A stretch of 54,796 nucleotides of DNA, filler included, from Sluysia triapertura (lineage: Eukaryota), in the NCBI GenBank assembly GCA_046118255.1. It is 4 parts of 4 records of this genome, joined end to end, with 100 filler letters (N's around TTAATTAATTAA, not from the genome) between each part and the next. Parts side by side here need not be neighbours in the genome. Positions count along the whole stretch, not along the records: positions 1 to 17,818 come from JBJNIA010184723.1; 3 more parts are not named here. One strand, given 5' to 3'. The notes beneath the pieces were generated by a model, which was not told the origin of the DNA, made no database searches, and saw only the letters and a program-made list of their open reading frames with translations. Of this stretch, positions 3,501 to 54,796 are shown in pieces (position 1 is the stretch's first letter; each line of letters begins with the position of its first letter). Position numbers and translations under genes: made by a program.

Positions 3501-6500
3501 GAGGTCTGACTGAGACTCCTTAGTCAGATTCCGTTAGTCCTCCAGTCGCTGTGGCTGGTGTAGTCGCGCTCTTAATCCACCTTGTGTTTTGCCAATGTAC
3601 AAATTAATATTCGTCATTTTCAGAAATCGAAATATGCTACCGGCCAGCGCGGATCGACAGTTCTTGGAAAAGTGCCGCTATCTACCCGATTATGGAGTCG
3701 ACAAGCACAAAATTAAGGTACATCCTAATTCAGCAGTTTAAATGATTAATTTGAATAGGGCAAGAACAACATGGATTACAACTTAGGATTGACTCCTTCT
3801 GGTATTCTAATTTACGAAAATTCTGATAAAATAGGACTGTTTCCATGGAGTTGCTTGACAAAATTGTCGTTCAAAAAGAGTCGACTGAAGATCGTGGTTC
3901 ATGACGCGAAGGAAGATGCAGTTAGTTAATTGATAACAGTTAATTGATGACGTGCTTAATGAATCTCTGCTTCTATTATTGAAATGATTAGTAAATTCAA
4001 ACACATGTATTTTCGTTCCCCCGTTGAAAATTGTCCACCTTGTATTATTTGTCGTGGTCTTACACTAAGCAATCATAAAATGTTATCGATGTTTCAATAT
4101 TGCATCGTTGATGAGGTATTAAAACTCTGAGTTTGTCTCCTTGAAAGTGCGACACATAGTCCCGTAGTTCTAGTTCTAATAAATTATTTCTCTATGGAAG
4201 GATATATTCATCTTTTGGATGTATCTGTTTCAGAATCTGTTGATGCTGATTGTCAACATAGTAGGTTGTAGAATTTAACAATTCCAGAAACAACGTATTA
4301 AAATATTGAGTAAGATCCCTATTTAAGATAGTTAAATTCAAATCTTTGATGTTTCATGATTTTGAGCAATTCTCAAGTAATACGTCTTCGATAAACATGA
4401 GTAAACTCTTAGAATTCAGCGATCTCAATTACTGTTAATCTATAAATGAATGTGCTGTTACTAATTCAGAATGGTCAACTAGAACACATTTTCGTTTTTC
4501 GCAGTTCTGATGTCGGACACTGCAAGCAGTTGTGGAAATCTTGTGTTGAGCATCACGCCTTTTTCCGGTTAGAAGGAGGCCACAAGCCACCAACTAAGTT
4601 GGAGCAATTTTTTAGGTTGAAATCGAGGTTCTATGCTAGTTTGCGAACTGAATATCAGATGGCTGTGCGAAAAAGTCAGTTCGGAAGTACTCGGGGTGGT
4701 CGAAGTGTAACTGGTTCCACTGTTGGAAGTGGATCTAAGGGGTCCAGCTTTCATAGAACTCCTTCCCAGCGATGCGCACCAAGACCAAGTTTCTTAGTGA
4801 AAAATGAAGCAGAAAGGAAGATTGTACAACAGAAGTATCGAGATCAAGTGCGAGAAGAAATGAAGCAGCAAATGTTGAACAAGAAAATGAATAAGTTAGC
4901 CAGTCCGAAACCTACTAGCCAGTTCAAGACAGACGTGAGCACTAACATGCAGTTCAATCAGAATCCACGAGTTCTAGTTCTGAAACAGATGTCCAATATT
5001 TCTGATTCGACAAGTTCCACTTCTGAAGAAAACACTGACAGTCCGAAACAAGCGCATGTTTCTTATGTAGAATCCAGTCAAACAAATAAACCCAAGGTTA
5101 GTTCAGTGTACTTTTTTCATGATAATTAATGGATGATTTTTTAAGTATCATTATTGTCATTCAATTTGATGTCATCCCGAGGTATTGTTTCATATGTGTT
5201 AGATATCTAGGTAACTTCCCTATATAATTCTCTAGTAGCCGCACCGTACTGTTCATCACGCTTCTTATCGCTTGTACCGAGTGTGGTAGACATTACTCGG
5301 ATGAAGCATGGACCCAAATTCGGTACAAATCTAAAATAAAAATAAGTCTAAAAAGGTCCAAGCAAAGAAATGCAAGAGTGAATTCGTGAAATAAAAAGAA
5401 AACAAAAGAAAATAAAACATAATGTAAGAAAGTTAGATTAAAATTCGTCATACTTAATTACCAAGAGTTTTGAGTCGTGATTTCTGTTGCTAACCAACGC
5501 ATATTATCACAGTAATGCGCATATTAGAATCATGTTGAAGAAAGTAGGGATGCATATTAGAATTAACAATATTATAATTATTATTGCTATTCTTTATAAT
5601 GATGGCAATTCGTGTTTAGTGTTTGTTTACACTTTGACACCATTTTGGTGTTAGTGATGATGTTTTATGCTTTAATTTATGAATAATACGCGATTTGTCA
5701 TTATTTATTATCTGAATTATTAATTTGTTGACTTGGTTATTAAAATCTTTATCATCATCACTCTTAATAAAAACATTACTGAAGTGCTTAATGCACTTAG
5801 ACAATTCATTATTATTCTTAACGTTTAAATTGTAAATACGCAAATAACGAAAACAAATTTTATTCCTGTTAAAAACAGTCGCATAAAAAGAGGGCTTATA
5901 ATAATCAAATTGTACACAGGTCACTTTTTGATGTTGAATAAAACATTTTAGTCACTAAGATAAATTTATCTGATAATAGCCTTCATTACTCAACCTGAGT
6001 AATTTCCACTTAAAGATGTCAGAACAGCAACCTTGTCTGGTCGATACAATTATACGTACAAGATGTTTGAGCGATCAATACGTAATCGTAACGACTTGGA
6101 CCATGTGGGCAAGTTGTGATGTTGAGACGAAACATATGACTTTATTTCTAATTGTGTTAACGCGACGAAAAAACTATTTATCTCATTTAAAACGTCGAAT
6201 GCTACGTTGTTTGAAGGGTAGTTAATTATTAAAAAATAAAACCTAAAATTATTGACAACACATACACTCTTTACTACAAATAAGAATGTATGTAGTTAAT
6301 AACTACAAATAAGACAAAACAAATGTACATACTCTTGTATACAGACTAATTTCATACACGTTTAACAATTTTACTAAAACCAAAATATGAACATCGCACC
6401 GCATTAACACGTGAGCCTGACAACATACTCACATTTAGATGATCTAGGATTTTCATGTGTTTCTTGCATCTTAAATTGCCATGTTCGAGAATTAACAAAT

Positions 6501-9500
6501 CTGTTTACTCTCGCATACAGGTAATTTTATAGCACGTCGAACAATATTACTAAAACAAGCAAAACTTCATAATACATCTGACTAAACTAATAATCGGGCA
6601 TCAATTATAAAATTGCAAACAGTGGTCGCATAGTGAACAATCTGAACGTAATAACATAATATCTAGATCTGACATTTTAAATTATCTGTGGTTATCATAC
6701 ATCTCTTACATTTTAAATCTCCCTGTTCATCTAGTTTATCGCATTTCAAATAGCTTGCACGTGACTTGTCATGCCAACAATCTAAAACATTCGTAGGCGA
6801 TCGAATTACTATCGAAATAACAATCGTTCTACATGCAGAGCTGGCGTATTTACGTACTCAAACATTGCGATCATTTTATAAAACATTTTACAAAAATGTA
6901 TAAAAAATGCAAGAACAGAATAAAGCCTAATGTGTGCTATTAGCCGTCAAAGTGTTGTCTGCCATGAAATGGTAAACGGTGCTCATGATGGAGATATGTT
7001 CAAGCACTTCATTGTATCCCATTTTTCAATAGTCACCACGACTATTTATTGAATATGGATAACTGCAGATTCCATCATCGACAATATGTTTTGAGTCGCT
7101 TGACGTCCAATAGAATTGTTTATAAATTCCTTCCACCTTAAATTGCGGAATTTTTTGGAGTAATGAAGGACGTCAGACCTAGGCCAACAAATGCAACCGA
7201 AATTCAGAATGGTGTTGATAAAGAGTGGAGCAGCTATAATGAAAACTTATAACAATATGAAAAGTTACTTGATGCTGGGAATCAAAAGATCGCAGTTTAA
7301 ATAAATATTTGGCAACTTAGTTTTTGTCGACTTATTTGTTTCCGGAGATTATTTTTATATTTCTTAATGTTTTATAAATGCTTTATGAGAACAGATAATT
7401 CTTCCGCGGTTCTAATAGTTGTTCTTCTAATAATTGTTCTTCTAATAATTGTTCTTATAATTAGATAAGCTTGTTGAGAAGCACCACAATCTGTTAGAAA
7501 AAGATTTCCTGAATCCTATTTTTCTCTTAATGCATCATTTTTTCACTATCTATTGAAGCTGAAGAATGCGTTTGCAATGGAACCAAAGTTCTAAAAATAT
7601 CCCGTTCGTCAACGTCAGGATTAAAGCTAATCCTTTAAATAACATAATACTTTTTATTTTTAGAAGCACTTCAATTACAGGAGCTTTATCATGATATATG
7701 AAATTACTGTCATTGGTGCAGCCATTTAATTTCCCGCCAATTATGTTGCTCGAGAAACGAAATGATTCTTCAACTTAGTATCTTGAAATAACTTTGACAT
7801 TTTCCTCATGTGGTACGTTATCCCGTTTGATATCGCGGCTTTCATTTTATTTGGTTCTGCTAACATAGTTTCACTTCTCTTGCAATAAAAGTAATGTTTG
7901 CATATCGCAGAAACAAAATCGAATAAGCACAATATCTTGAACTAGAATGTTATAAAATAACACGATGATTACATCCTTCACAAGGGTTAGAATCAGAATA
8001 TGTTATATGTTTCAGTGGAGATTCGATTTTGATTAAGGAGTTTCCATTTTCATTATTTTATGAGGTCGGAGTTTTGGTGTCAGATGGTACAGGGATGTGG
8101 AGATGTAGCAGTAGCTGGTGCTGTCATTACTGTCTATCGCAAGAATGTTAAAGGTGCTGTATTATTTGTAGATTGTGTCATATTGTGATATTATTACTAA
8201 CTAATGACTTGTGGAGTTCGACTGGTTCTCATTTCTTATTTTATTTGTAGCCTTCTGGGAACACGAAAAATATCAAAAAGAATTTACCAACTGACAATAA
8301 CAATGCGACAGTTGCTGCTACTGTTGCTGGCCAAGATACCAATCAATCACGACCTGGTATCCATGTGACTAGTAACACACTGAGCAGTCCACCGTTAGTT
8401 TTATTTGTATAATTCTTTATGTAATGTTTTGTAGTGAGACTATTTAAGATGTCATTTATCCAAGATCATACCACGAGCCTCCCGCATTCATAACCTCCTC
8501 CATTTCCTATCCAATATAAAATCGGTGAGATGAATAGAACAATTAATAAAAACCGCATCATTTAAATTCTGTAGAATCTTCAAATCAAGCGTAACATTAG
8601 ACCTAGTATCTCGATGATCAATAAACATGATCAGTTTTAGGTGATGAAGTACTCATTTGTGAGTTGTTGAGTTAGCAAACTGCACACTAATAATAAAACT
8701 GAGATGATTAGAGTGATCTGAATTGATGAGTACCTTCACGACATTGCACCACTTTTCAGTAGCTTGTAATACATGCACGACAAAGTGATTAAAATAAGTT
8801 TTCTTCATTGATTATTTTCAAGTATTCATTTCCAAACCATTTTATCAATTCAGATACTAGTTCTATTGTTCTTTGAATAGTATTTTCTATGTTGTTCATT
8901 TCAAATTCAGTACATGTTTGGACGTCATCAGCATTTTTAAAACCATATGATTCGATTACACTTGAAACATCATTGATGCATATTATAAACAATAACGGAC
9001 CAAGTATTGATCCCTGAGGAACTCCATGCTTTCCATATACTTCTTTTGACTTCACATTAATCACATTACAGTTTCGTTTGACTAGCAATCAGAAAGATCT
9101 TCATAAATAAATAAGATAATGAAATGTGTAGTGATAATTATTATTCAACATGGATTGTTCTGTTCTTCGGTTGGATAGATAAGTAAATCACTGTAAACTA
9201 TGAAAATATGAAAAACTTTCTCTTAAAATTAAATTTGTTGAAAATGCAAGTGTCGGAAATTGGCACTGTTATGAAACATGAGTTCTTGCTTGGAACTACG
9301 ACATCGCAGACTGCTCGGAACATTAATAGAGTATCTGGCTCTAGTGTTACCATGGAGCAGTAATTTTGACTTCACGAATGAACCACGCGGTCGGCCAGAA
9401 TCGAAAGTCAGTGATGACGAACTGAAGGAACCTATCTCAGAGTTCCTATGAAAGAGTATTAACTGATTTATCTCAAATCGATGCAGTGGAAAAGTTGGAT

Positions 9501-10827
9501 AAGTGGGTTAAATGAAATGAGTTAAAAATCAAAATTAGAAACATCTGGAAGCTTTTCTAATTTGTGAATCGAATCATCCTTTGTGGTGAGAAATGGATCT
9601 ATACGTTCAGCAAAGTTGCTGGACAAGAGTGAATCACTGAGACACCCCACAAAGCAATGATGAGTGTTTGGTTGATTCATCAATAACAGACCAAGTGGAA
9701 ACAATGTAACAAGCTGAAGATGACGTAAAGGTGGAAATGGAAAAAGCACTTAGCCCTTTTTCGGTCCTATTTTATTTCCATTGAATCCACTACAGGTCCT
9801 ATTTAATTCCAACGAAAAAACAAAATTTTCACAATTAAATGAAATTATTTTCATACATTATTTTGACTAAGCACAAGTCTTGCGATTATTTTGCAGATTT
9901 AAATTAATGAAGTTCATTTTTATACATGATCATTATTTAAGAGTTAAGAAAACTTTAAGTGATGAAAGCTTTTGACCTTTGTTATATTATTGGACTTGAT
10001 GTGTAATCAGAACGGCCATGGTACACTAATCAACAGATTTGAGTTGTTGAAATCCGATTTTTATTTAATTTTACTTACTATTTATTGTTAGTAGAACAAA
10101 TTCTGATAAATTTAGTTTTCTAAATAGCAGATGCGAAATAATATTTTCAGAAATTATTTAATAATTTTTGAACAAAAAATCTAATTTAAAGTTGGGTTTG
10201 TCCGTGTTCATTGTCATTAATTTTTGCATTAAATGCTAATTATTATGCTAATTTTTAATTATAGTTAATTTAATGATGATAATAATTTCAGAGTTTCTCC
10301 CACGGCAGTGAAACCAGGCTATGTAAGTTAATTAAATGAATAACGCCCATTTTAATTGTGATTTTACTAAATAGAATTATTTAATAATGATCTTGCTTCA
10401 GGTTCCTACGGTCCAGAAGAGGACTATAAAACTACAAGCAGTTATCAATAATAGCAATAACAGGCCAGGCCAGCGATATAAGGAGGCTGAAGTTCGTAAT
10501 TTACATATTCTTAATAGTAAATTCATAATTGAGTTTGTCTTGCTGTTTTTCTCGTAAATCAGAAGCACTGTCCGTCCTTGATTCAAGGGTAATTCTTCGG
10601 AACAGCCATGTAGAGAGATTCTTTGAAGAACAAATCATGAAATATTAAAATATTAAAATCACAAATGATAAATTCATCCACTTAATTAATTAATTTATTT
10701 ATTAACTTATTATGCAAATTTAAAAAAAGTTTAATCTCCGCAACTCAATTATTTGTTGATTTTCTACAGTGACATGGTACTGCGCAAGATTAATCTGGAA
10801 CTCAACCAAGTGATCATCACTCACTGA
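584..10827 (+). CDS. FERM-domain protein, Yurt/EPB41L5/EPB41L4B-like (5' exons outside window)
   Basis: GT-AG exons with consistent phases: 584-766, 800-926, 3624-3717, 3759-3920, 4470-5096; less certain tail exons 8251-8393, 10292-10322, 10402-10491, 10563-10588, 10770-10827. Peptides GPPFALQFRVKFFSSDP..TRYLFVLQLK, ELGDY..SEFRF, YGVDKH, LGLTPSG..KIGLFPW, LWKSCVEHHAFFRL..FRLKSRF..RTEYQ match the EPB41L5 FERM and FERM-adjacent region. AATAAA near 10860. Confidence 0.9.
8789..9088 (-). mobile_element. Non-LTR reverse transcriptase fragment (intronic)
   Basis: GVPQGSILGPLLFIICIND followed by NADD (degenerate YADD). Confidence 0.85.
9240..9730 (+). mobile_element. Degenerate mariner transposase fragment
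   Basis: VMKHEFLLGTTTSQTARNINRV, DFTNEPRGRPESKVSDDELKE and KLDKWV motifs in shifting frames; boundaries approximate. Confidence 0.7.
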
Positions 10828-13548
10828 ATTATCTCCCAACAATTTGTCTAGATGTTCGAAATAAATACAAAATGATAAGAAATGATAATTGAAATGTGGC
10901 CCAATATTTGAATTTTATTTATTTACAATTCTGAAATGAAATGTCACTTTGTAAATAGTTTATTCGTATTTTCCAACTATGAGAACCGCACCAGATAATG
11001 AATTACGCTACTAAATAGGTGAAGCAAGTACCGGGATGCTGCTTGATAGATCTTCAGAAAATAGACTGAGTCGCTTTGTTTCGAAGTGACTGACAATTTA
11101 TTGAGGGTCGCAATAGAACAAGAGTTGTATTTGCTGTGTTGCGATACTTGAAAGGCACTTGAATATGTGCCCTGTAACTATGCTCCATTTTATAATTTAT
11201 GAAATATAATTTATGATATTTTTTGCTACTAATGTTAGTCAGTAAATTAATATTATCATTTTATTTAGGTTATTCAAGTATAAATAATCATCGTCTTCTC
11301 TTTCTCTAATTGATAAATTGTCTGAGTTAAGAGGTTCGTTCATTCTTTCATGTTGGCGCGAAGCGTGTCTCCGCATAGCACGCTCTCACATTACATTATT
11401 CCTCTTAATTTCTATTCAAATCGAATGAGATAAAGAATAATAATGTATTGTGGTTTGTTACTTGAAAAATGTCATTGATCGATTTGTTTTATTTCCATTA
11501 TTCTTTTTCAGATCCAGTTGGAAGAGGCGCCCTTGAAACAGTATTCAATTTGATATATACACTACCATATCTGTTTTTACTGTATTCTTTCATAATTTTA
11601 TTTTTGTTTTATCAATCAGTATTAATTTTATTTTATCTATTTCTTTTATTTTTATTTTTATTTATTTATCGAACTAATTTGTGCCTATTTAAACTGTTAC
11701 GATTATTCATTATTGATTCGATATGGAAATCACGACACATCGCACGTATCTGGACAAGTTCATTTGTGAAAAATGAGTGGCTACAAATTATTATTATTAT
11801 TATTATTTCAAGCTGTTCCTTGTTCCAGGACAACAGTCAGCATCTTTCTAATGTTATGTTAATTGTCAATAGAAATTAATTTTTCTTTTACAATTTGATG
11901 TAATAATAAAGGACTTCATTTGTTATTTTGTGTGTGTGAAATGTGTTTGCTCAGAAACCAGTGCCTTGTTTGATTTTTAAGTTTGCGTGACAAAATGATG
12001 CCGGAAGAGCATTTTGAACTGCGTCTTTATGCAACAGTTTTAAACTTGATATAGAAATCGAATATTACGGAAGATATTCGATACTAAACTAACTCGAGTC
12101 GATATGCATGTATATGTATAACGTCATTAACTCATAGCTTGCCGCTAGAAATTCTTGATCGAATGTTTGATGACAACACAAAGTTATTCTTTCACAAAAC
12201 GTACTACTACGTCAGCAGCTACTGAATTTCGAATAAAAAATGACGTATTACTACGTCAACAGTGAGCACCGAGTTAATATAGTGTGTATCGCGTGTAGTT
12301 CAGTTCGTAGTACGAGATTGCATTTTGTTGAATCAGCTGAATCGTATTTATTATATTAATATTTGAATTCGGTTTGGATATTTTACATATTCAATATTAT
12401 ATATAATATAGACATGAGTGGACACTTCTGCGAAGGTTTGATTGTGCTTTCAAGATTGCTTTCTAAATATAGATATTCGAAAATTCGGTGCGATCTGTTT
12501 CAGATCAAAGACACGACCTAATATAATACAGTATCCTACTGCATCGTAAGATATAGGGAGATTCACCAGCTCAATCTATTTATCGACTTTGCATACATGT
12601 ACAGGTAGTCGAACATGCTGTCTATTCATGCATCTGTGAACATGAAACGATTTGGTGCCATGGTGATAACGAATCACAAGTCGAACAGATTTCGTGGAGG
12701 GATGACAGAAACTGCTGTAATTAAATCTATAGTGTGAGGCGCTACAATAATAATTAAATATTATTGCAACAAATAATTTGATTAAATAAAATATATTTAG
12801 AACACAAGCAGAATACACTCTACACGATGGCTAATGCACAATTCATTACAATAGACAATTGATGTAATCGATAGCTCGAGGTCTATATCGAATTTTTAAT
12901 ACTCTATTGATTACTCTACTTCATTTACATGAGTGGTTGAAGTGGTGTAGAGGGAGTGTGTATCAGATGATCTAGATGAGTTTGTTGTGTAGATACTACT
13001 ATTACTACTACGACTAAGAGTAGGTGTTCAGAGTGCAGAAAAAAGTAAGAGAGAGAGAGAGAGACAGGAGTAGTTGTAGTGTTTGTGTTATTTATAAATT
13101 GTCGGGTCGAGTAAACATTCTGATTTATCTACAGATTTGGTATTACATAAAATTATTTACAAACGACGATTTTCAAAACTGATACATTTTAAAAACATTA
13201 CGTGAAGGGTCGAGTAAAGTTATTTTGATTATTTTTATTAAAATAAAATTTTATAGTTGGTACTTACAAAATAGTAGGCAGTCGATGGAACCATAACAAT
13301 GTTTCATTGTTTGATTCATTATCCACTCTTATTACACCTTATTCTGGGGCCCACTAATTTATAAATATTCGCAGCCTTGCGTCAGGAGTCGTTGCAAATT
13401 AGATAGATGCATTTAAAATGGGCGGCCAATCAACATTCAAGTCAACATATATTTACCAATCGTATTTTACATCACACAAGCACATATTGCCTTTGCATAC
13501 TTTTATGTAAAAAAAACGAAATAAGTTCAGCAAACGAGCCACTGTTCG

Positions 13549-13800
13549 TCAGTACACATTCCGCTTCATATCCGCCCGTTTGCCCCATGGCATGTCGTGC
13601 CAAGCAGCTCGTTTGAGCATGCGTATCCATGGATAACTCTCAGGAAATGGTCGTCTCAACATAGCATCATTGTACATACCTTCATCCAAGTGGCCCTGAG
13701 ACGCCTGATCGAGAGAAGCTGCCGCTAACAGTCCAATCATGAATAGCGAACCCATCAATAAAAGAACTTGAGCTCTCATAAATGACAAGCACAAATGCAT
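13549..13800 (-). CDS. npp-5: Neuropeptide precursor, flatworm PWamide (npp-5) family; mature AAWHDMPW-amide
   Basis: Hydrophobic N-terminal signal peptide; KR-AAWHDMPW-G-KR gives dibasic cleavage sites and an amidation Gly; resembles flatworm AAYMDLPWamide / WxDMPWamide peptides. Splice acceptor just upstream of the ATG. Confidence 0.85.
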   Translation of the reverse strand: MHLCLSFMRAQVLLLMGSLFMIGLLAAASLDQASQGHLDEGMYNDAMLRRPFPESYPWIRMLKRAAWHDMPWGKRADMKRNVY

Positions 13801-13965
13801 TATAATTCTGTAATCGAAATTCTGATGAAAACAACCATAGCTTATTATATTTATATAGATTAACGAACATGCTTACTAAAAAATTACAGGATATTGAAAT
13901 AGTCGATTTTTATTGGTTTAATTTATCATACTTGCACATGATTGGTTAATGATTGAATTGTCTCA

Positions 13966-13967
<2 letters not shown>

Positions 13968-14023
<56 letters not shown>
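13968..14023. repeat. (ATT)n microsatellite
   Basis: About 18 perfect units. Confidence 0.95.
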
Positions 14024-15655
14024 TTACGATGCACATAAAATCACTCTGGCTTCTGTAGTGGTACAGAAACGGAGGAAACATAACTCTGAAAAGGAAATAA
14101 TAAAATTTTATTTGAAAACAAATTTTTAGAGCTTGTTTCATACAAAATGAGAATGAATATTCCACCTTGAAATAGTTGCAACAGTTCTCTTTATTGTACA
14201 TATGTTGTTTGAATGAAACATAACAAGAAATAGATTTTCGATTTGTAGGGACGGCAACTGGGGTTTCTGTTGAATTTCGAACAGATAACACATTTGTAAA
14301 CATTATAATTTAAAGGTATAAAAGATTCCAGGACATTCGCATCTACTTAGTAAGAGTTAGTAAGTCAAGTTCGAAACTGGTGGAAATAGTGAGCGCGCTA
14401 TTCAAAAATGAGAATGCATCATTTGTAGTTGTGTAATAATTTTGAATAAGATTTATTTTAGGTTGATGAAACTTCAAAATTAGTTTATAAATGTCAATAA
14501 TTAACAATCAATAATCAATAATTATTATTCTATCACAAATCATATCTTTTCTAAAATTAAAATAATATGAAATAATGTTTACTTATCATTGGGAGTTGTC
14601 GACAATTTTAAATACCTCAGTATTTGTTTATTACTAAATATTATTATTAATTATTATTATTACTATTATTATTAACACTAAAATTATGATAGGGTTTTTA
14701 ATTGTATTCTCAAAAAAATTTATTAATACTTCACAAATATTGACCGATAGGTAATAATGGGACAATTTATTTACAATAATAATAATTATTATTATACGAT
14801 GAATCATATTATCAAAATATAAATAATGCTACAATAAGAAAATACTGATACATCTATCTTCAGTTATTGCGATGTTAATACTAATTGTACTCGACTCTAA
14901 TACTAATCGAATTTTACAAACACTAATCCTATCAGAAATTCTTCCTTATACATGCTGCAATTACTTCAAATTCATTGCCAAATAATTTTCTCTTAATTAA
15001 TAGTAATAAATTCGACTTTGCTCAATATTGATGTGGCTTTTCTGACACTTAACCTATGAAAAAATGTTTTGAGCAAAGTGGGCATTTCTGTAACTTGATA
15101 AGTTAATAAATACTTTAACTTTAATCTTAAAATTCGGATCTAACTAATCAATTAATGCTTAATGCTTACGTAATATATTTATTAAAATCTAAAATAAAAA
15201 CTAATAAATTAACAAATTTATATTGAAACACGATGCTGATAATAATTAACACGGAATTATTAAAAAAATATTGCAAGGGCAAAGCAGATTAGAAGTTAAG
15301 TAGCAGTAAAAATATTAAAATTCAAACCATCCAGGGTATTTAATTTGTATTTTTGATAATTTTGCGTAGATGTAAGCCTCAATATATCGTGAAACTTACT
15401 AAATATATACTTAAAATGGAAATATTTACATGGTTTGGGAAGTGTTGAAATAATTTATTAATTTAATATTACAAACTATTTCAATGATTATTAAAGAATT
15501 AAAATTTATAACTTTAGAATCATGATTTATTATTATAAGAAAATCAAATTGAAATAAATTGTGGTTGAATTTTTTCAAAAATAAATTCATTAAATCAACT
15601 ACAAAACAAAAATTTAACGTTAATAATCTTATGATGTGTAAAGTTTATCAATGTA

Positions 15656-17073
15656 TTAATTGATCCGTCTATATTTCGAACGATTGCTCGATAATTGAAA
15701 TGAATCATTCTGAATAATAGATAAAAATTATAATTGCATGACCAGTTATTGTTAAAATCAAAATTTACTTTAATTAAAGAGTCTTTCGCTATAACGGCGG
15801 GAGCAACTCTGTCATGTTCGTTGGGTTGATCCTCGATGTCTGAAGGGTTGGAGTTCATTTGACTAGTTCCAATAGATGTCAAAAACCACTGAGCCGCTCG
15901 GTATGGTCACGTAGAATATCCTGGTTGAGAGAACCGGTGCACATCTCAGCAACGTTGTGAAAGAATTGACACGAAGCATCATATAGATTGCACATTGCTA
16001 TCCTATTACGTCTTCTATTGAAACCATTTTTATGTATTACTAAATTTGTGATTAATGGCACACTCATGGGTTGAACTTACTGGTCTGTAGCACGAGATTC
16101 ACCGTGTTCCTTGAATTAGTTTCGACATAACTTATCATCTTTTGATTGATCGTAGTTGTTACTAAAACTATCGTGATTGGGAATTCGACACAGAAATGTA
16201 TTTCTAATTGATCTAATATAACCATCACATGTATGTGTTCCGTAATGTTTATCGGATGAATGATCGGTGCAATCTCGACGTGAAACGTCCACTAAGATTC
16301 CATTTGAATTAATAGCCTTAAATTCGACATCATTGACTTCATTGTTAGTTAAATCTGCCGCTGCATGAACATCAAAATCGCTTTCACAATAAAGTTGGAT
16401 GTGACGTGGTAATTCAGTATGCGGTTCATGCTCAGGAGCATCTTGTAATTTAACCGTCTGAAAATTAACATATTGACAGTTTTGTGATACAATTACATAA
16501 GGATCAACAGTTGGCGTATCGTTAGTTTTTCCACTTTTATTTTACATGTTGTATCGGCCCGTTGCATTTCCGTGGTGAGATCAAATAATTAAAACCTGGT
16601 TTCACTGGAAGATTTGACAATTTCTACACTGTAGTGTTATCTTACTAGCTTTAATTCTAGGTTCGGATGCTGATATAACAATTCCACTAACTTTGACTAA
16701 TTTGGATATTTCATCTGATCGAACATTGCGCAAACTTCTTGATGTTGCATTCCACTGTAAGATTACTTGAAAAGTTGGTAAATTCATTGACAACAGATTG
16801 CATTAAGGAAACTATCAAATCTGGTTTTTGAATAAGCTCATTTGCAATGATATGATCGAATTCAGTTGTATGGTCTTATCAATTTCCAAGTAATAGTACT
16901 TATTATGAAAATTGTGAACTAAGTTTTCTCGATACGAATTAAAAGATAACATTTAACTGATTTAAGAAATTGGACAAATTTAGATTTGTTTATAATATTT
17001 TGAGATAGATTATCCAAATCATTAATGCGATCATTAATACTTTAAGCTGTAATGCTTCATCATAATCTGCCAT
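15656..17073 (-). pseudogene. Chimeric gene relic: MCM5 N-terminal domain (no AAA+ domain) fused to an unrelated C-terminus
   Basis: ATG at 17073. Across frameshifts: YRENLVHNF..YYLEID, EFDHIIANELIQKP, FQVILQWNATSRSLRNVRSDEISKLVKVSGIVISASEPRIKASKITLQCRNC, PRKCN, DPYVIVSQNCQYVNFQTVKLQDAPEHEPHTELPRHIQLYC, all colinear with MCM5 residues 1 to ~250. Similarity stops at ~16386. Putative 59-nt terminal intron 15768-15710. Confidence 0.85.
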
Positions 17074-17179: not shown

Positions 17180-17695
17180 GAATGTAGCCTTGAGATTGGT
17201 TGGCCAATGAAAGAAAGACGATTATCGTGTTTGTAAAATGCTGCAACCGTGTGACAGTTAATGTACCCTTATAATTCAAATGACTGTCACCGTTGATAGT
17301 ATAAGTAATAAAATAATAATAAATAATAACAATTAAATTATATAAAAATACATAAAAGACTTTGTTTTCTTTTTCTTTGCATAAAATTCTTTCAAATCAT
17401 ATTATCTTTGGAGAAAAATTCATGCAGTGCGACTAAAACATAACATCGTAGTTAAAAGGATAGAAAAAGGAATGATGAATGAATATTTGACTAAGATAAA
17501 GACGTAATTAAAGATGTCACAGAAATTCCATTTGAGTGTAATGTTTAAAAAATGATTTTAAAATGTGAATTTAATGTTTTTCACTGATGTTAATGATTGA
17601 ATGCTGAACAATTTTGAACTTAAAATGTTTTAAATAAAAAGTGAAATGTACATTTAATGGTTTTGATTGTAAGTATAATTTTAATGTGTGAGGTT
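17180..17695 (-). promoter_or_regulatory. Shared upstream module, copy A
   Basis: Reverse complement aligns with 25262-25980 (e.g. acattaaaattatac, aaaaccatta(a)atgtacattt, gaaaaacattaaattcacatttt). Ends in two hairpin-like motifs and CCAAT boxes. A regulatory role is inferred from position only. Confidence 0.6.
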
Positions 17696-17818
17696 GTGAT
17701 GGGTGATTTATGTTTGGAGGGCGTATATTTGTTATATAAACTTAAATTTAAGACTAGTTTGACAAGTTTATTTTTATCTAAGAATTTAGTAAAAGTCTTT
17801 TCATAATTATTTGGATGG

Positions 17819-17918
17819 NNNNNNNNNNNNNNNNNNNNNNNNNNNNNNNNNNNNNNNNNNNNTTAATTAATTAANNNNNNNNNNNNNNNNNNNNNNNNNN
17901 NNNNNNNNNNNNNNNNNN
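17819..17918. other. Assembly spacer N44-TTAATTAATTAA-N44
   Basis: Exactly 100 nt; the 12-mer has stops in all six frames; identical spacers at 28880 and 43665. Confidence 0.95.
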
Positions 17919-18039
17919 ACGTAAACGGTGGGTAAAAATTCTGGGGGGTAAAATTACCCCCCCCCAGGTTGACTAAAACGTCACAATTACATTCGATTGA
18001 CGGACAAAGGTTAAACAATGTTCCAAATACCACTCGCAT

Positions 18040-18620
18040 CATTAAGAGCACGGACTAATCTTGGAATATAACTTTTCCAATGACGTCATTGCAAAATGCG
18101 GTGAACAGGTGATTTTGAAAAACCAAACTCACTGGAAGCCTGTCATAGAGACTTCCTTGGACTTTGCCGAAAACTTTCAAGTACTCTTTCTTCTTGTGTG
18201 GAGCGATTGGTATTCCTGAACGCTGTTTGTGAACATTTTGAACAGTTCCATCGGTTTCAAACTTATCTCGCGTCGGAATTTCAAAATCATCTTTACCTTC
18301 GCGATGTTAGGTCCTGTCCTTCCTTGACGAACACTTGTCAAACAAGTGGATTGGACGAATGGGGTTTTAGTGAATATCCTCCCCGTTCACCAGACTTCAC
18401 ACCACATAACTAGATTTTTTCTTATGGAGATACCTAAAAGACAAGTATATGCCAATAAACCTGCAACAGTGGCTTAATTGAGGGACATGAATGTGGCCAA
18501 ATACCGAAGGAATTGTTTCATGATGTGTGCGATTCCATTGCTTGGCTTTGTGAGCAGTGTCTGGGTCAAAATGGACGTCAGTTTGAGAACAAGCAAGTGA
18601 CATAATCAATAAATGATATT
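18040..18620 (+). mobile_element. Degenerate Tc1/mariner transposase fragment (WPPRSPDL..DFFLWGYLK class)
   Basis: YPPRSPDFTP..LDFFLWRYLKDK..YANKPATV across frameshifts. Confidence 0.75.
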
Positions 18621-22626: not shown

Positions 22627-22819
22627 NNNNNNNNNNNNNNNNNNNNNNNNNNNNNNNNNNNNNNNNNNNNNNNNNNNNNNNNNNNNNNNNNNNNNNNNNN
22701 NNNNNNNNNNNNNNNNNNNNNNNNNNNNNNNNNNNNNNNNNNNNNNNNNNNNNNNNNNNNNNNNNNNNNNNNNNNNNNNNNNNNNNNNNNNNNNNNNNNN
22801 NNNNNNNNNNNNNNNNNNN
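22627..22819. other. Sized scaffold gap (193 N)
   Basis: Plain N run without a linker. Confidence 0.95.
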
Positions 22820-24527: not shown

Positions 24528-25158
24528 TAACCAAACCGCAAACTTAAATAAAAATTAGATATCAAATACGACAAATGCAATTTCTTCTTTATATTATTAT
24601 CTTCGCTACTATTCATTTCCTTCTGCGAATAATAGTCTTTAGAATGACTTTTGTTGTGTGATCTTATTGATTTTTGTTCAGCGAGCGTTTCTGGATCCGC
24701 ATTCTTAAAAATGCAGTGAAGGACTTTAGATTTAAACGAACGTATCTTCGTTATTATGACTTACTGTGCAAGGACTAGTTATAAGCATGTCGAAGAAAGA
24801 TGGGAGCAAACTTCAGAATACCTGTACCGTGTACGTCGACAATGTTCAATCTTGTATCGAAATTGTAAGTTACTGGAAATATCTCAAAATCTCCTAAAAA
24901 GGTCGTCCGACAACATTTCGTTCATCTGAAAACAGGGATATAGTGACAGCTGCATTTGCTCATTCTTCCAAAAAATCTATCCGTCAGGTATCTTGCATGA
25001 CTTTGGTCTAAAACCATGCCCTAAATGAGGATGACCCAGATAAACGATTCAGAATTTTGTGAGAACTTTGTACTATTTTGTGAAGAATCACAAATTTTTC
25101 CAGATTTCAGAGGAAACTTGCCACAAAGATATTGTGCTTGTATTGAAGTTCAATGTGG
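24528..25158 (+). mobile_element. Left part of an internally deleted Tc1/mariner element (family of the MITE at 38074)
   Basis: aaccaaaccgcaaacttaaataaaaattagatatcaaa matches the TIR at 38091; transposase N-terminal relic (ERIFVIMTYC, GRP, KKSIRQVS) and C-terminal CIEVQ. Confidence 0.8.
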
Positions 25159-25261
25159 TGACCAACCTTTTCATTTAAAATTCAAAATCATTATTTCATT
25201 TGTAATATCACATTTATTAACATTTTACTTTTTACCTTTTCACACTTTAAAACATTGTAAA

Positions 25262-25980
25262 TTCACAATCTTATAACATTAAAATTATACTCATATTGAA
25301 AACCATTAATGTACATTTTAAATTATATCCAAAACATTCCAGGTTCATAATCCTTCAACACTCAATCTTTAATATAACCGAAAAACATTAAATTCACATT
25401 TTGAAACCATTTTAAACATTGCAATTAAATTGGCATTTCTATAACATGTTTATTTATGTATTATTTTCTTAAAACATTCTTTTATCAGCTCTTTCCACAT
25501 TTCATATCTCTGTAATCACCGAATAAGTTTATTTCAAAGAAATTATGAATTAAAACTAATATTGCAAAAAGCAGTTAACGAAAGAAGTTTATTCAAACGA
25601 ATTTAAGCTAAATCGAAATCCATCATTGTTATGTAAAGAACTTTAAAATAATGAAGATAAAAAAGAATTTTATTTTAAAGAAAAGAAATTCAAGAAGTTT
25701 ATGTTTAAAAGAATTTATTTACAATAAAAGATTTGTATGTTAAGAAATAAGGAAATAAATTAAAAGAATACAGTTTATGTATTTCATTTTCATTTTATTT
25801 ATTCAATTTATAATAATAATAATTATTATTATTATTAACATTAATTTGTTAATTGTATTTTTAGTCTGTCCCAGTCGATAGTTTAATTAAAATCAACTCA
25901 ACCTACCTTGTTAACTGCCAACAGATGGCAGTTGCCTAGTGTGTAAATAATTTTATTTATAAATTAATATGATTGGTAGA
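25262..25980 (+). promoter_or_regulatory. Shared upstream module, copy B
   Basis: Homologous to the reverse complement of 17180-17695. Contains an AAAGAANTTT array (25581-25717), a perfect hairpin aactgcca-acaga-tggcagtt (25913-25933) and ATTGG at ~25972. Confidence 0.6.
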
Positions 25981-26154
25981 TATGCTACAGTTATAACACA
26001 ATATACATTACACACATATGTGTATTTTTATTACTAGTCCTACTATCGCTACTCCTACTAAGTAAAAAAGCAATAACATAAGAAGTTATTTTAAGAAGCA
26101 ATTCACATAGTACATTATAAAATCATTTATAATTACTTTCATAGTTCCAAATAA

Positions 26155-27721
26155 ATGTCTTCTGTGGATAAAATCATTTTACAAAAAACATGAACGAAAA
26201 TATGTCGATGCTTCTAGTTCTACTTCTATTTCTAGCAATCCATTTGTTTCATCAAGAATGGTAATTGTGCCTGATGTGGAAGATCACTCATTTACTCATG
26301 AATACACTGAGTACGATATTGAAATAGTTGTTAAAGGAAATTATGATTCAAAACGCTTGACAAAATTAGTAAACTCCAGTAGTGACAAGATGTATTCATT
26401 TAACAATATCTACATGATTGAAAACGATAATAACAATTACGATCAATGCGATGATAAAGACAAGCCTGATTTTTCACTTGAACTCGAAAGTGATTTTTTT
26501 TAGATAAATTAATTAACTGTCAAGGACTTCATGAAAGTAAATATGAAAATATCATACCTATTATTGGTTCTGAAATTAACAAGCAGATTCATTTAGTGAA
26601 AAATATAGAGTCGTATCATTATGAAGCTGGATGTAAACACACAGAAGAACGTAATGTTCTTAATGATGAATTTCTACTCCATCTCTCACGTGACAAACTA
26701 ATATTTAATTTAGTAAAAAAAATGAAAACAGATTCCTGTATTACAGTGACTTGAAATATATATTTCCTACTATCCTAGATGTCGTTGAATTTCATAGCAA
26801 ACAGCAGCATATTTTGTCATCAAAGTCAGATGTAGAAATATATCATCAAACTGATAAGAATTGTATCGTTATTGCTACTAAGTAAGCTACCTGAATCTAA
26901 ATACCGAAAAACAATTACATCAGACCGATTTCATAGAAGTTGCAATGAAATAATTATGAAAGGCTCACATGTATTGCCAAGTCCCTTATGTAGTATGAAC
27001 AAAATTTTAAATGACCTAATTCTTAATGATGATAAAGCATTTTTTAAACCTGTCAAAACAAGTATTAAATTCTTAGTTAAAAAATTCTTGAATTCAAAAA
27101 ATCGATCTTACACTATTCCTACTTATCATTTACAATTGACCGATTCTAAAGATGTATCCGAACGAGATACACCGTTGTGCATCATATAATGAAATTGTAT
27201 GCTTAGAAAACTTTCCCGAATTAGTAACAATATACTATATATGTGATCTAATATCTCAAATAGACCATGATAAAGCTGTTATTAATCGTGCTGTGTCATT
27301 TTTATCATCTAAGCCCATATGGCATATGATTTTACGTAAACAATTAATATTTAAATCAATACAGATTATATCGCCTACAACATTAAAGGAAAAACATATC
27401 GAGTTGATGTTATCATTGTTGAATAATGCTATATGTTTTCAAGCATACGTTAAAGATCAATTTCATTTTATATCTGGTAGTAACGTTATTTTATCCAACC
27501 AAAAATGTATGGGACAATGCCCACCAGAGTTAGATGCATTTGGATTATGCATAAACTTTGACACATGCTGCCAGTATTACCACGACATCTACCAAATGAA
27601 CTGCAGTAAACGAGAAATAGACGAACGCAAACAAAGAGTATACAATCTATTAACGTCATTACGTTCCAGAACAGTGGTTTCCAGCATTGTTTCCAGTACA
27701 AAAACACTAACTCTTATCTAG
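26155..27721 (+). pseudogene. Orphan ~520-codon gene broken by about five frameshifts
   Basis: ORFs 26258, 26872 and 27152 plus the intervening open frames (LDKLINCQGLHESKYENIIPIIGSE.., YYSDLKYIFPTILDVVEFH..) tile continuously from ATG 26155. Cys-rich C-terminus CMGQCPPELDAFGLCINFDTCC. No family recognised. Confidence 0.7.
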
Positions 27722-28023
27722 TTAGTAGTTGTAATTTCCTTCATCCTTATCATTTATATTTCAGGACTCTACAACCGAACAGATCCAGCACGTATCAAAA
27801 GTAACTCAAAATTTTTGATAATATGTGTTATAGAATTTAGTTGTTTTAGATTTAATAATAAAAGTTTATGTTTTGACTTAAATAATGTCTTAAATGATAA
27901 AGTTTAAAAAGTAAATTTATTAAATTCATTTCTTAATAAATCAATAAACTTTCCTAATTTAACATATTGTAATGTGATATTAACTAATAACTTTACAAAT
28001 ATAATTTCAAAACATTTAACTCC

Positions 28024-28120
28024 AAATTCAAAGTGGACATTTTTAAATACTAATTATACCTCTTAATTTCGTCGTTTTTGATATATAATTTTTATTTGTG
28101 TTTATTTTTGGGACAGTCAG
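28024..28120 (+). mobile_element. Right end and TIR of the Tc1/mariner element that begins at 24528
   Basis: ttcaaagtggacattttt..aaatactaattatacc..gtcgtttttgatatataatttttattt..ttttgggaca is colinear with 38422-38535. Confidence 0.8.
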
Positions 28121-28879: not shown

Positions 28880-28979
28880 NNNNNNNNNNNNNNNNNNNNN
28901 NNNNNNNNNNNNNNNNNNNNNNNTTAATTAATTAANNNNNNNNNNNNNNNNNNNNNNNNNNNNNNNNNNNNNNNNNNNN
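28880..28979. other. Assembly spacer N44-TTAATTAATTAA-N44
   Basis: Identical to the other two spacers. Confidence 0.95.
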
Positions 28980-31945: not shown

Positions 31946-32292
31946 TTGATGGGAGACCAAGTTGGTGTTATTCATTCCGAAATTTTGCCAAGAAACTTAT
32001 CAATCAATGCCGAACTTTATTGTGAACAACTCAAACGAGGAAACACTGTAATCAAAAAGAAGAGGACCAATAAGAAGCAGATAATTTTAATGTTTTGCCT
32101 CATGTCGCCACATGCGAAAGTTGGCTATTGAAGACTTAACTCCATGTCGAACCATCTTTCTGATCTCACATTTGAAAACGAAGAAGCAATAACAACGTGG
32201 ATTGAAGAATTTTTCGACCAAAAATCACCAAGCTTCTTCAAACGTTGGATTGACAAACTGCCAGAAATGTGGAAGGAAGGCGGAAAATATTA
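31946..32292 (+). mobile_element. Mariner transposase C-terminal fragment
   Basis: GVIHSEILPRNLSINAELYCEQLKR; FENEEAITTWIEEFFDQKSPSFFKRWIDKLPEMW..GGKY. Confidence 0.85.
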
Positions 32293-32599
32293 CTGTTTCA
32301 ACCAATGACACTTGAAGGATATTCTCATTAGTCAACCATGTAAGACTAGATTTTTTAGTGCCAATATGCACTCTTGATTCACTTTTGTTAATATTTGATC
32401 TTTCATTTCGAGAGTAAGTTTACAACCTCGGTTATACTATTGAAATTACTGCTTGAATCTTTGTATCTTTTTATCGGAGAATGTTTAGTTACATTAATAG
32501 ATGTTATTATGGAATAAGTCGGTTGATTTTAATTTAAATTCTTTATTACATAATTTATTTAATAAGTGATTGCAAAGATTACTTAATTGATTGAAAAAC

Positions 32600-33058
32600 C
32601 CTATGTATTCATGCGGTTTTATTTGTTGCAAAGAAAACACACCAACTTCTTGTTTTAACTTATTTGAGTCATATTCATTCCGCTGAATTATCTATTTAAA
32701 TCATTTTAGACTAACTTTCACTTTCATTAAAATGGAATGTCAGGTAGATACAAATGAACATTTCCGGCATCTCTACTCTTTTTCTATTTTAATCAACATT
32801 TAAACGCTGCAGAAGCCACAAGAATGATTTGTTGCGTTTGTGGAGAAACTGCATGAAAGTGGTTTTCGAAATTTTGATTTAAACAATGAACTTCGGTCAG
32901 GTCGACCTAATGACCGATTCAGGATGATCCGCGTCAATCGACAGGAGCACATCGATTGTGGTCACACCACTGTTTCTCGACATCTCAAGAAAATAGGAAA
33001 AGTTCAAAGGCTTCGATCACAATTGTAAAAAATCGCACGAACATATGCACCAACCCAA
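32600..33058 (+). mobile_element. Internally deleted mariner element
   Basis: MECQVDTNEHFRHL.., FDLNNELRSGRP, TTVSRHLKKIGKVQR; right TIR aaaatcgcacgaacatatgcaccaacccaa followed by TA; same family as 34727-35120. Confidence 0.8.
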
Positions 33059-34419
33059 TATAAAAAATATATAACTCGTGTTTTAAGTTTAGATATCATG
33101 GTATTATTACAATGTCTGGTTATTGTAGAAACTAATTTATTTATTTTTAAGAATTTATATCATTTTAAGATTGATACTAAATAATTGGTAATAAACATAT
33201 CAGCAGTGCAATATTTATCATTTTAGTAATGAGACAATTTTGTTTAAATTCTACAATTTATATAATTGGAAATATTTTCTCCAATTTGATTGGATACCAA
33301 TAATGTCATTAATGATGGAAACTATGAAAGATAAATTTTTAATACAGCAATTTTAAAATTTACATATATATGTATATAAAATGTATATATATTCCCGATA
33401 ATAAATATGGCTTTTAACTGTTATAGATCGCTGATATTCATAAAAGAAATATCGAAATGAATAAAGCAATTATAAAACGGTTAGTTTATTACTGTTTTCA
33501 TTGTGATAATTTAATAATTGAATCTCAGGACATGGATTATAGTATTAACTTAAATTACTATAATCAAAGAAAAGTACAAATTCAATGTATGTTAAAAGTA
33601 CATGGTCGAGTGATAAGACATTATAATTGGTTGTTGCTGTTGTTGTTAAATAGTCACATGTCGTGTTTAGTCTTTGTTAATGATGATTAGTAATGATAAG
33701 ACATATTTAAATCGATAAAAATGAGAAAAATTAAATCTATTTTTATTAATTCAGAACATTATTGTTGCCAATTGAATATTTAACATCCAAGGACGTTTCT
33801 TTAACTAGTTCCATTCTCGATATATTCAATTTCCATCATCAAGAATGGAAAAAGAATCGGCAATTAACTGTTAGTTTTTAATGAGATGTTTGAAATTATG
33901 CTTTTTTCTAATAAAAACTGTGGTTTATAAATTAGAATTAAAAAAAGGAATAAAGAGACAATACATCAAGAAATAAAGAAAGAAAATTTTATATTGTATT
34001 TTATTTCTAGGATATCGTACGTATATCAAATCTTTAATAAATTCTTTATCAATAACAAATGGAACTCTGAATTAATCCAATAATGATTAATAATTATTTC
34101 CTTTTCTAATAATGTGAAAAACACTTCGATATTATATTCCTTCGGAATAAGCTTTCGATACGTTTAATTAAAGTTATAATTTTTCCATGTAATACGTCTT
34201 AATTTTGTTCTAAAAAATGAAACTATACTTATATCCGTCTTTAAACTTTTGTGATGTGCAGCAGCTCTTTTCTTCCTTATTTTTCATTTATTAGTTTTTT
34301 GAAATAATTTTTTCTATTTATTTATTTTTATTAATAAAAAAACAGCTAAACTTATTGTTCATTCATTGATAACTAACAACATAGATTTTAACAATGGTTT
34401 ATTGTACTGCATTTCATAA

Positions 34420-34726: not shown

Positions 34727-35120
34727 TTAGGTTGGTGCATAAATTCGTGCGGTTTTATTTGTTGCGTTTATGGAGATAAGGCAGTCAGTGAAAAGTGGTT
34801 TTCGAAATTTAACAGTGGAAATTTTGATTTAAACGATGCACATCAGTCAGGTCGACCTAGTGACTATGGTGAAGACTGATTGAACCAATTGATTCATGAT
34901 TTTCATCTTTTCAGCTCCATGAAAACGAAGAAGCAATAACAACGTGGAATTTTTCGATTAAAATTCACCAAACTGCTTGTGACGGAGAGAGAGACTGAGA
35001 TATTTATTTTTTCTAATGTTTTAATAAGTTCATTTTGTTATCTTGAATATTTTTATTCTTGATCAGTATATGCATTTTTCATAATTGTAAAAACCCGCAC
35101 GAACTTATGCATCAATCTAA
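34727..35120 (+). mobile_element. Mariner-derived MITE (394 bp)
   Basis: ~30-bp TIRs ttaggttggtgcataaattcgtgcggtttt / aaaacccgcacgaacttatgcatcaatctaa; TA on the left, TG on the right; transposase remnants inside. Confidence 0.9.
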
Positions 35121-53077: not shown

Positions 53078-53351
53078 ACTTTTAACACATATTGCATAAT
53101 TGACCATATGTAATGGCACTCCCATTCATGTTGGGTCATATGTAGTATTAAATTCATTAAAAATAAATTTTGTAAATATAGTAAGGATTGTGCATATGAC
53201 TGTATGTGGTGGATTACCACCCATCTCGAGTCATGCACTTAAAATATTACTTAAATTTACGTATAAGTTTAGGATTTTTAATTTTCTTTTTTAACATTAT
53301 TTATTTATTATCTTATTACATATTTTTATTTTTCAGTTAGTATAACCAATA

Positions 53352-53660
53352 ATGTCCTTTTCAACGTGTGCCATCTGTCTGCGCTCACTTCGTAAGTACT
53401 TCGCAAAAACCTCTCCTAGCTTCCACTGTTTCCACTTTTTTTGCCTCTACCATCTCTTTGATTCTTCTCCTACACCCTTACCAAGCTATCCTTTATGCAG
53501 AGCTACTATTCATAAGTACGATATCTTTTATAAGCGTATCTTTCAACGATCGTATGAATTCACGATCAAGTATATAACAGACGATTCAGAAGAACCTGGC
53601 ATTGATTTATATCAACCAGAATCGCCTGTAAGGAAAAGTAACATAAGTAAAAATGGATGA
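53352..53660 (+). CDS. Small degenerate RING-finger protein (102 aa)
   Basis: CAIC..FHCFHFFCLYHL..YPLCR; two or more ligand positions altered; acidic tail; splice acceptor at 53336. Confidence 0.55.
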   Translation: MSFSTCAICLRSLRKYFAKTSPSFHCFHFFCLYHLFDSSPTPLPSYPLCRATIHKYDIFYKRIFQRSYEFTIKYITDDSEEPGIDLYQPESPVRKSNISKNG

Positions 53661-53926
53661 ATAAGACCGCCTCCAAATTTTCCTAAAGCTTTAACTAAGT
53701 CACAAAGATGCAACAGGAGAAGGCGTCAGTTAAAGCATTTTTATAAACAAAAAGAACAAAAACATCTAAACCTTCTAAAATCCCTAACCCGTTCTTAAAA
53801 AAGAGATGTTAGGTTTTCCAAAAAATTGTTTCCATTGTTATAGTACAATTAAATTACTAATAAGCTTACTTAGTCATAATTTTTTTTGTACAATTTTATG
53901 TTCTATTCTCTTCTATACAGACAAAT

Positions 53927-54796
53927 ATGCAAGCCAAGATCCTCAATCAACCCAACAATTTTTATGTTCACGTGGATAAATTCTGCCACCAGAGTATTAC
54001 CCCCGCCTTCTTTTCTTGCTCGGTCGAGACACCTAATAACCTTAAGTCCGAACTAAATATTAATCTAGCTACACACATTTTTTCTTTAAAACCCGAAACA
54101 CCTTTAGTTTCACTTGATGGTTTATCTCAAATCCCTGAGACAATAGATTCTTTGTATTTGGCTGTGGCACGAGGAGTAGTTAAAGTTGCATTATTCGATA
54201 ATGGCGTTCCATTTCATACTCGTGTCCACATGTTTTCCTCACTGTACATATCAAAAATTCACAAAAAATGTAACATCATTATCGAGGCTACAGAATATCC
54301 TACCTCAATTGCTCTTCTTTTTCCCTTACCTCTCTCTTCTTTTCAGTCCTTTTTGCCCAATTTGTATAAGGATGATAATGCTAATCTAACACGATGGAAA
54401 AATGGAACATCTTTTACTCATGTTCCACCCATGTCGGCTGAGGATGAGGACCGTTTAGTCTTTGTAGCGTACTCGTATGCCTACGATTTTTTAAATCAAC
54501 CCCACATTACTCAAATATCCTTACTCCCGTCAATTCCATACTGATATAAACATAAAACCACGACTGCGTATTAAGAACTTTGTCCGAGACGTTCATGAGA
54601 TGAAGGATTCGGATATTTCCGAAGCAAAGGATATTGATGATGTCCGCCCTTTCTTGCTAGGACATCTTCATGATAAGATAATGGTCTCACTAAATCCATG
54701 CCTTATTATCCATGATTTGGATCTTCCATTTGGTTGGCTCAAAGGGATTATTAATTTATCTAATAATAATCTAGTATCTTATTCCACAGACAACGC
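53927..54796 (+). CDS. Unknown protein, more than 280 codons, one frameshift near 54510-54540, runs off the window
   Basis: The 205-aa ORF overlaps a second frame (KYPYSRQFHTDINIKPRLRIKNFVRDVHEMKD..LPFGWLKGIINLS..) that is open to the window end; acceptor at 53920. Confidence 0.6.

Follow-up and report, generated by a model that had tools for sequence, protein, structure and literature searches.

In this study, we describe a decayed chimera on the minus strand of a 54,796-nucleotide stretch of Sluysia triapertura DNA (the window), in which the front third of the replication gene MCM5 is joined in frame to the first zinc finger of the nuclear receptor tailless/NR2E1. The MCM5-tailless fusion is real. 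Tentatively, and with somewhat less than even confidence, we read it as a chimeric processed gene: a spliced MCM5-tailless RNA would have been retroposed, its copy translated for a time, and the present locus would be the resulting pseudogene. This combination of partners appears unreported, and its kind is already known; a literature search at index level gave no MCM5 pseudogene, captured MCM5 or MCM5-tailless fusion. Save for seven frame changes, the chimera forms a single frame of ~490 codons from an ATG at 17073 to a TGA at 15595, and the MCM5 codons, linker, tailless finger and ~200 coding-like codons all run in one direction. Its parts, followed by two features upstream of it, are listed here.

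16386..17073, minus strand: MCM5 residues 1 to ~245 (Pfam, PDB and frameshift-aware alignments)
16380..16385, minus strand: fusion point, with the last MCM5-like codons reading E for D, then the AG of the R codon
16317..16380, minus strand: in-frame linker of about 21-23 codons, 36% GC
16316-16221, minus strand: decayed first zinc finger of tailless/NR2E1 (protein matches and tailless profiles)
16185..16220, minus strand: perhaps what is left of the tailless recognition helix, carrying in-frame deletions (anchored test, weak)
15924..16184, minus strand: coding-like continuation in the same frame, with two stops (16116-16118 and 16077-16079)
15595..15906, minus strand: 103-codon tail ORF after one more frame change, ending with TGA at 15595
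17195..17208, no strand assigned: two CCAAT boxes in opposed orientation, ~125 nt before the ATG on its upstream side, picked by eye
17400..17699, minus strand: dispersed repeat starting at TC directly after an A, 78% identical over 229 nt to 25263-25487

The minus-strand ATG at 17073 opens MCM5-like sequence that is spread across three frames. Frameshift-aware alignment against two references, one distant MCM5 and a profile from eight animal-type MCM5s, places MCM5 residues 1 to ~245 colinearly on 688-691 nt of the window. This leaves no space for an intron, and the MCM5-like part is indeed intronless, as the earlier note on this DNA had stated. Both references give six frameshifts (near 17039, 16947-16950, 16876, 16773-16785, 16612-16615 and 16539-16563, minus strand), with no stop against the distant MCM5 and one against the profile, so this part is not a single frame. 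When the frame is translated through with X at the breaks, Pfam MCM_OB matches with an E-value of 2.4e-20, while solved MCM5 chains (PDB 8q6o_D and 22vt_5) match at 3e-27 versus 6e-4 for MCM7. The animal-type QLYC motif is present as well. Judged by these matches, the first ~245 residues are clearly orthologous to MCM5, which bears out the earlier view of a copied host replication gene.

The MCM5 piece comprises the helical subdomain, the zinc-finger subdomain and the first part of the OB fold. The chimera covers positions 2-106 of the 126-position MCM_OB model and an intact MCM5 covers 1-124; on this measure the piece is terminated within the OB fold, which is incomplete. From established MCM structure, we take the missing region to include barrel strands and the N-terminal DNA-binding hairpin. 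The AlphaFold model of the intact MCM5 N-terminus had a pLDDT of 40, and its predicted strands past residue 247 were left out of the evidence. The label of an MCM5 N-terminal domain therefore stands as to MCM5 descent and falls as to a whole domain. Three of the four invariant cysteines of the MCM5 zinc finger align, the fourth zinc cysteine does not. The AAA+ ATPase and the winged-helix domain are absent: all nine full-length animal-type MCM5 proteins match only 16946-16383 within the window, and with these queries no C-terminal MCM ORF was found there. The loss of the ATPase described earlier is thus confirmed.

The MCM5-like part ends at PRHIQLYC, again as described, and the same frame continues to 16119 without a stop. 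The fusion point falls where animal MCM5 genes have a conserved exon end, that of the YCD-R exon, and the sequence following it is no GT donor. A pattern scan of metagenome contigs yielded 43 animal-type MCM5 loci, several of them near-duplicates and none of them chimeric. An intron stands straight after YCD-AG in 14 of the 43 (13 with GT, one with GC), and the remaining 29 read through. All 14 intron-bearing loci also break near residue 195 (three judged by match end alone), and those with enough DNA break near residues 52, 94 and 137 too. The window copy lacks these four upstream introns conserved in other animals' MCM5, a loss gauged against those genes and not against the host's own; since many of the 29 read-through loci are intronless across this region, the host MCM5 could itself be intron-poor. 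Mean nucleotide identity to the 23 distinct read-through loci is 0.60 before the junction and 0.34, then 0.27, after it, with a null of 0.30. By a rough estimate (~7 intron sites in 295 codons, 3-codon resolution), the coincidence with an exon end has a chance of ~7%. The end of homology at an exon end, together with the four absent introns, suggests that a chimeric RNA was spliced and then copied back into the genome. Among the scanned loci, one (L030, 598-799) holds two instances of the MCM5 YCD-R exon end, separated by 170 nt, and another (L039, 243-274) carries the GC donor at the YCD-R intron. The linker may derive from a tailless 5' exon, a third gene or a decayed short intron. We rejected decayed MCM5 as its origin, since equally good matches came from 75 of 645 null offsets.

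The sequence beyond the junction had been called novel; it is in part recognizable. Pfam zf-C4 matches the post-junction sequence with E-values of 0.035 and 0.0044, and its weak PDB matches are mostly receptor DNA-binding domains. The 89 post-junction residues found two matches among 1.84 billion representatives. The best, protein P0004 (E 6.6e-4), is a tailless-type exon whose named relatives are mostly NR2E1/tailless; the second is an unrelated repeat protein. Of 120 listed proteins, 115 have a complete P-box; the tailless profiles built from these score E 1.4e-10 and 4.7e-11 in the chimera frame and 0.1 or worse in the five other frames; separate profiles were scored for tailless only among the NR2E subfamilies. 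The finger retains ILxD, DHSS, KHYG and CDG, and 9 of 22 near-invariant residues are changed, including the first cysteine and the SSGK glycine. Two of its four cysteines remain, the first being changed and the fourth absent, so that the nuclear-receptor finger pattern Cys-X2-Cys-X13-Cys-X2-Cys, as given in PMC8363021, is broken.

Further tailless sequence is at best faint. An anchored test of the 12 recognition-helix codons was equalled by 4 of 400 and 3 of 400 nulls with gap costs picked after looking. Over the ~90 codons after CDG, the tailless profile score was reached by 376 of 2000 codon shuffles, and no match to the tailless ligand-binding domain was found in 14100-17072. Alignments made by eye of a second tailless finger, T-box and ligand-binding domain were at chance level and were dropped. 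A separate protein, P0006, joins a tailless exon to an unrelated N-terminus, presumably UvrA-like, and is probably a misassembly or gene-calling artefact.

Past the tailless finger, ~200 codons look coding yet match nothing. In a codon-score test, the post-finger stretch was reached by 8 of 1000 shuffles and the tail ORF (15906-15598) by 3 of 1000, the latter value being subject to selection since this ORF was picked for being open; the neuropeptide 'control' of the test sat in the training set and is not independent. On the strength of the coding-like codon use in the 3' stretch and tail ORF, the original gene was probably one ~490-codon frame, with the tail ORF as its probable original C-terminus. 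Coding-like sequence thus runs slightly past the end at 15656 assigned earlier, to the TGA at 15595. Searches for relatives gave nothing usable for the tail ORF in Atlas or PDB, none of 417 word-index candidates for the 3' part, and three distant MCM5s, none chimeric, among 2204 candidates for the OB-plus-finger combination; exact look-up of three window proteins in the protein collection found none of them. The tailless match and the 3' codon bias nevertheless uphold the earlier claim that the MCM5-like part is joined in frame to coding-derived sequence.

The degree of decay is alike in both parts. In MCM5, 35 of 87 invariant columns (40%) are changed, compared with 1-9 of 92-100 in intact animal-type orthologues; since 28 of 93 such columns also differ in an intact but distant MCM5, part of the change may be lineage divergence. 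In tailless, 41% of the tested columns, each 90-100% conserved in the 115 proteins, are changed. Together with the six frameshifts, these losses agree with the earlier description of the copy as now decayed, and today it would most likely give no protein beyond a short peptide from the first ATG.

The stop count does not match such a degree of change. Within 265 homology-defined codons, one stop is seen where 5.5-9.6 are expected at 40% residue change (P 0.001-0.027), in a test that takes present-day codons and alignment-chosen frames in a region noticed for being open. At 25% residue change 3.4-6.0 stops are expected (P 0.018-0.14), and at 20% change after duplication P is 0.05-0.24; adding the 99 post-CDG codons (three stops in 364) gives similar or weaker values. 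Repeat pairs of the window show 0.09 frameshifting indels per substitution, which predicts 11-15 in the MCM5 part versus the six seen, a count that is only mildly low. With ~40% of invariant residues changed in both parts and yet one stop in 265 codons, the frame was probably held open for some period during which both folds decayed, its death coming later; we regard the evidence from the sequence as moderate. The decay is also uneven: between 17073 and 15906 on the minus strand, six frameshifts fall in the first ~535 nt and none was detected across the next ~600 nt. The 3' part perhaps stayed open longer than the 5' part.

In the explanation we propose, the donor after the MCM5 YCD-R exon would have been spliced to an exon from another gene whose phase matched, so that MCM5 and tailless lay in frame on one RNA; its source may have been a local rearrangement, read-through or trans-splicing. 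This RNA would have been reverse-transcribed and inserted at the present locus, and insertion of such a spliced RNA would account for the missing introns. The frame would then have been kept open for some time as structural residues were lost from both modules, so that any role would not have been that of a ring subunit or a DNA-binding receptor; the frameshifts would have come last, as the death of the chimera. There is no poly(A) tail (the longest A run is 6 in 700 nt) and no flanking direct repeat above null, marks that old copies lose; an N-run gap, moreover, lies upstream. The CCAAT pair, in a window with four close opposed pairs at three places, is possibly a promoter element copied along with the gene, and it counts against a plain retrocopy, which would be without promoter DNA.

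A different origin, as cargo of a multi-copy mobile element, is possible but doubtful. The element would most likely be a non-autonomous Helitron with its 5' end at 17699. It would have picked up the promoter and the 5' coding part of MCM5 along with a piece of tailless and other sequence, and what we see would be one of its copies in a decayed state; selection on the element would have kept the frame open, and the stop deficit is compatible with this. The repeat lies ~625 nt upstream of the chimera, with an N-run gap 120 nt beyond it, and each of 17473-17699 and 25263-25487 has a decayed ORF downstream, to which the two are oriented alike. Each copy begins with TC, the one at 17699 directly after an A as at a Helitron 5' end, a two-base mark that is weak alone. 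After the 25263 copy comes a hairpin+CTAGT (25936, -8.4 kcal/mol) that is the strongest among the 360 CTRRT sites of the window, and other intronless ORFs of the window sit in repeat-bounded units. Helitrons, according to PMC4778049, have 5'-TC/CTAG-3' ends and capture promoters with N-terminal coding pieces. Against this origin, a minus-strand hairpin+CTRR end was not found in 13900-17050 (best rank 94 of 360), the 3' end of the 25263 copy is without match in 11000-17070, and its hairpin lies 2 nt before CTAG versus 11 nt in Helraiser. Terminal inverted repeats are lacking around the chimera (inverted-flank score 76.5, null 95th percentile 77.5), and no flanking LTR rises above null. Self-BLAST gave no second copy in the window, a related-locus scan of metagenome contigs confirmed none of 70 pattern hits and a pattern scan of viral contigs gave none, negatives that are weak insofar as such collections would rarely contain such a host. 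The repeat at 17400..17699 is possibly the 5' end of a non-autonomous Helitron, its tie to the chimera is unproven, and the two may simply lie side by side, without any connection, where TEs are dense; the mobile-element cargo put forward earlier is thus not borne out by any 3' end, terminal inverted repeat or LTR around the chimera. Three further candidates were rejected: a Helitron end at 15866 (rank 279 of 360 sites), downstream flanks shared with the ORF at 26111-27721 (null level), and a Burro-type LTR context as in PMC6431247 (within the stretches covered by the scan, the chimera has neither an LTR nor a pol gene beside it).

It is unlikely that the chimera was dead on arrival, that is, a chance in-frame join of MCM5 and tailless copies, by template switch or repair filler, that drifted neutrally and never made a useful protein. 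Such a join would be in frame once in three by chance, the six frameshifts and the hits to invariant residues (tailless Cys1, the SSGK glycine, the fourth zinc cysteine of MCM5) agree with it, and the stop count is nothing unusual if 20% of the residues changed (P up to 0.24). It has to contend, however, with the 41% change in tailless, at which one stop in 265 codons has P <=0.027, with ~200 further codons that retain in-frame coding bias, and with a junction that falls on an exon end. The simple null posed earlier, a non-coding 3' part and neutrality throughout, is likewise disfavoured by the tailless match, the 3' codon bias and the stop deficit. An assembly misjoin or sequence error is highly improbable. 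Gaps are present, one ~750 nt upstream of the ATG, and P0006 shows that joins of this type arise in assemblies; the junction here, in contrast, is in frame, on an exon end and within gap-free sequence, and similar decay of both halves (41 and 40%) would be unexpected from joined live genes.

Our preferred reading, the chimeric processed gene, has its closest parallel in chimeric retrocopies with two or more parents made by LTR-mediated retroposition. As described in PMC5131818, these likewise hold intronless, sense-oriented, in-frame pieces of host genes; the window chimera differs in that it is without flanking LTR pieces and is old and dead, and its join at an exon end suggests splicing more than template switching at microsimilarity. 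Helitron-captured fragments such as HelibatN3/NUBPL and those of maize Helitrons resemble it in combining promoter-like 5' DNA with an N-terminal coding piece and in carrying several unidirectional gene fragments, and the window has a TC-starting repeat upstream; unlike them, as described in PMC4778049 and PMC6431247, it is without a 3' hairpin+CTRR and its cargo appears spliced. Pack-TIRs such as Ssk-FB4, as described in PMC8277862, also reshape host gene pieces into a young, fast-changing protein, but no terminal inverted repeats surround the window chimera. Drosophila MEI-217, a stand-alone MCM N-terminal domain of the mei-MCM complex, shares the animal MCM N-terminal sequence without ATPase. 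According to PMC6553819, it comes from an MCMDC2-type gene, partners with MEI-218 and has been kept for >250 million years; the window chimera is instead MCM5-derived, cut in the OB fold, fused to a receptor finger and dead. Relative to its own parents, the chimera lacks the AAA+ and winged-helix domains of the MCM5 of MCM2-7 and has an incomplete OB fold, three of four zinc cysteines and a broken frame, and relative to tailless/TLX (NR2E1) it has two of four finger cysteines, with second finger and ligand-binding domain undetected.

A decoy of MCM2-7 would need a folded MCM N-domain. The decoy role suggested earlier is disfavoured for this copy, which has a truncated OB fold, has lost one zinc cysteine out of four and is changed at 35 of 87 invariant columns; as it is also left with half of its finger cysteines, any decoy or tether would have been an earlier or sister version. 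That a Helitron-like family carried a translated MCM5-tailless fusion under selection, with intact copies in the genome or in sister species, and with an MCM front end tethered to DNA by the receptor finger and an MCM5 cell-cycle promoter, is a joint claim we consider very unlikely. If true, such an element could act on its own DNA in dividing stem cells by recruiting MCM2-7 loading there or disturbing it. Should there be intact versions in several copies, nature would have done the experiment of linking components of replication licensing to a protein that binds specific DNA sequences, and host replication would be seen to be tampered with by an animal transposon; otherwise the chimera is a curiosity. 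In its present state, it is a fossil that records exon shuffling between two highly conserved genes, with a hint that a hybrid protein was once kept, and its exact junction is available as a search target in related genomes.

The remainder of the window is AT-rich (GC mostly 20-35%) and holds host exons, a candidate neuropeptide gene, element remnants and N runs.

4446-5129, plus strand: FERM C-terminal domain exon of a host gene (E 1.6e-7)
~8840-9080, minus strand: reverse-transcriptase fragment (Pfam RVT_1, E 1.8e-5)
9260-9700, 17920-18600, 32000-33060, 34740-35120 and 39490-40390: decayed mariner/Tc1-like remnants (by eye and self-BLAST)
13549-13872, minus strand: neuropeptide-precursor-like single-exon ORF (by eye)
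17819-17918, 28880-28979 and 43665-43764: stretches of N enclosing a spacer of 12 bases, which has stops in every frame
about 22628-22819: separate plain N run
25159-28023, plus strand: 2.9-kb block splitting a Tc1-like element, with a degenerate 13-bp direct repeat on its flanks
41533-41892, plus strand: DOCK C2 domain exon of a host gene (E 1.7e-4)
43855-47643: unit with a long inverted repeat at either end, the repeats being 86-92% identical
50307-54544, plus strand: cluster of ORFs, intronless and 104-332 codons long, which include hydrophobic segments

The neuropeptide-like ORF has a signal-like N-terminus and one W-amide peptide with dibasic sites on both sides, which presumably resembles flatworm peptides; a literature search for its motif gave no relevant match. 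The Tc1-like element split by the 2.9-kb block has its left part at 24528-25158 and its right part at 28024-28115, with an intact relative at 38071-38541. The block itself carries the Helitron-like stretch at 25263-25940 and a frameshifted ORF of ~500 codons (26111-27721), which has no Pfam or PDB match and reaches Atlas rotifer clusters at 0.83-0.84, below reliability. Within the inverted-repeat-bounded unit lies an unbroken intronless 496-codon RING-finger ORF (45344-46834, minus strand), and the unit looks like a cargo-bearing TIR element. The ORF cluster at 50307-54544, which includes a protease-like stretch (by eye) and a weak RING match (E 0.007), is possibly a retroelement or virus-like insert.
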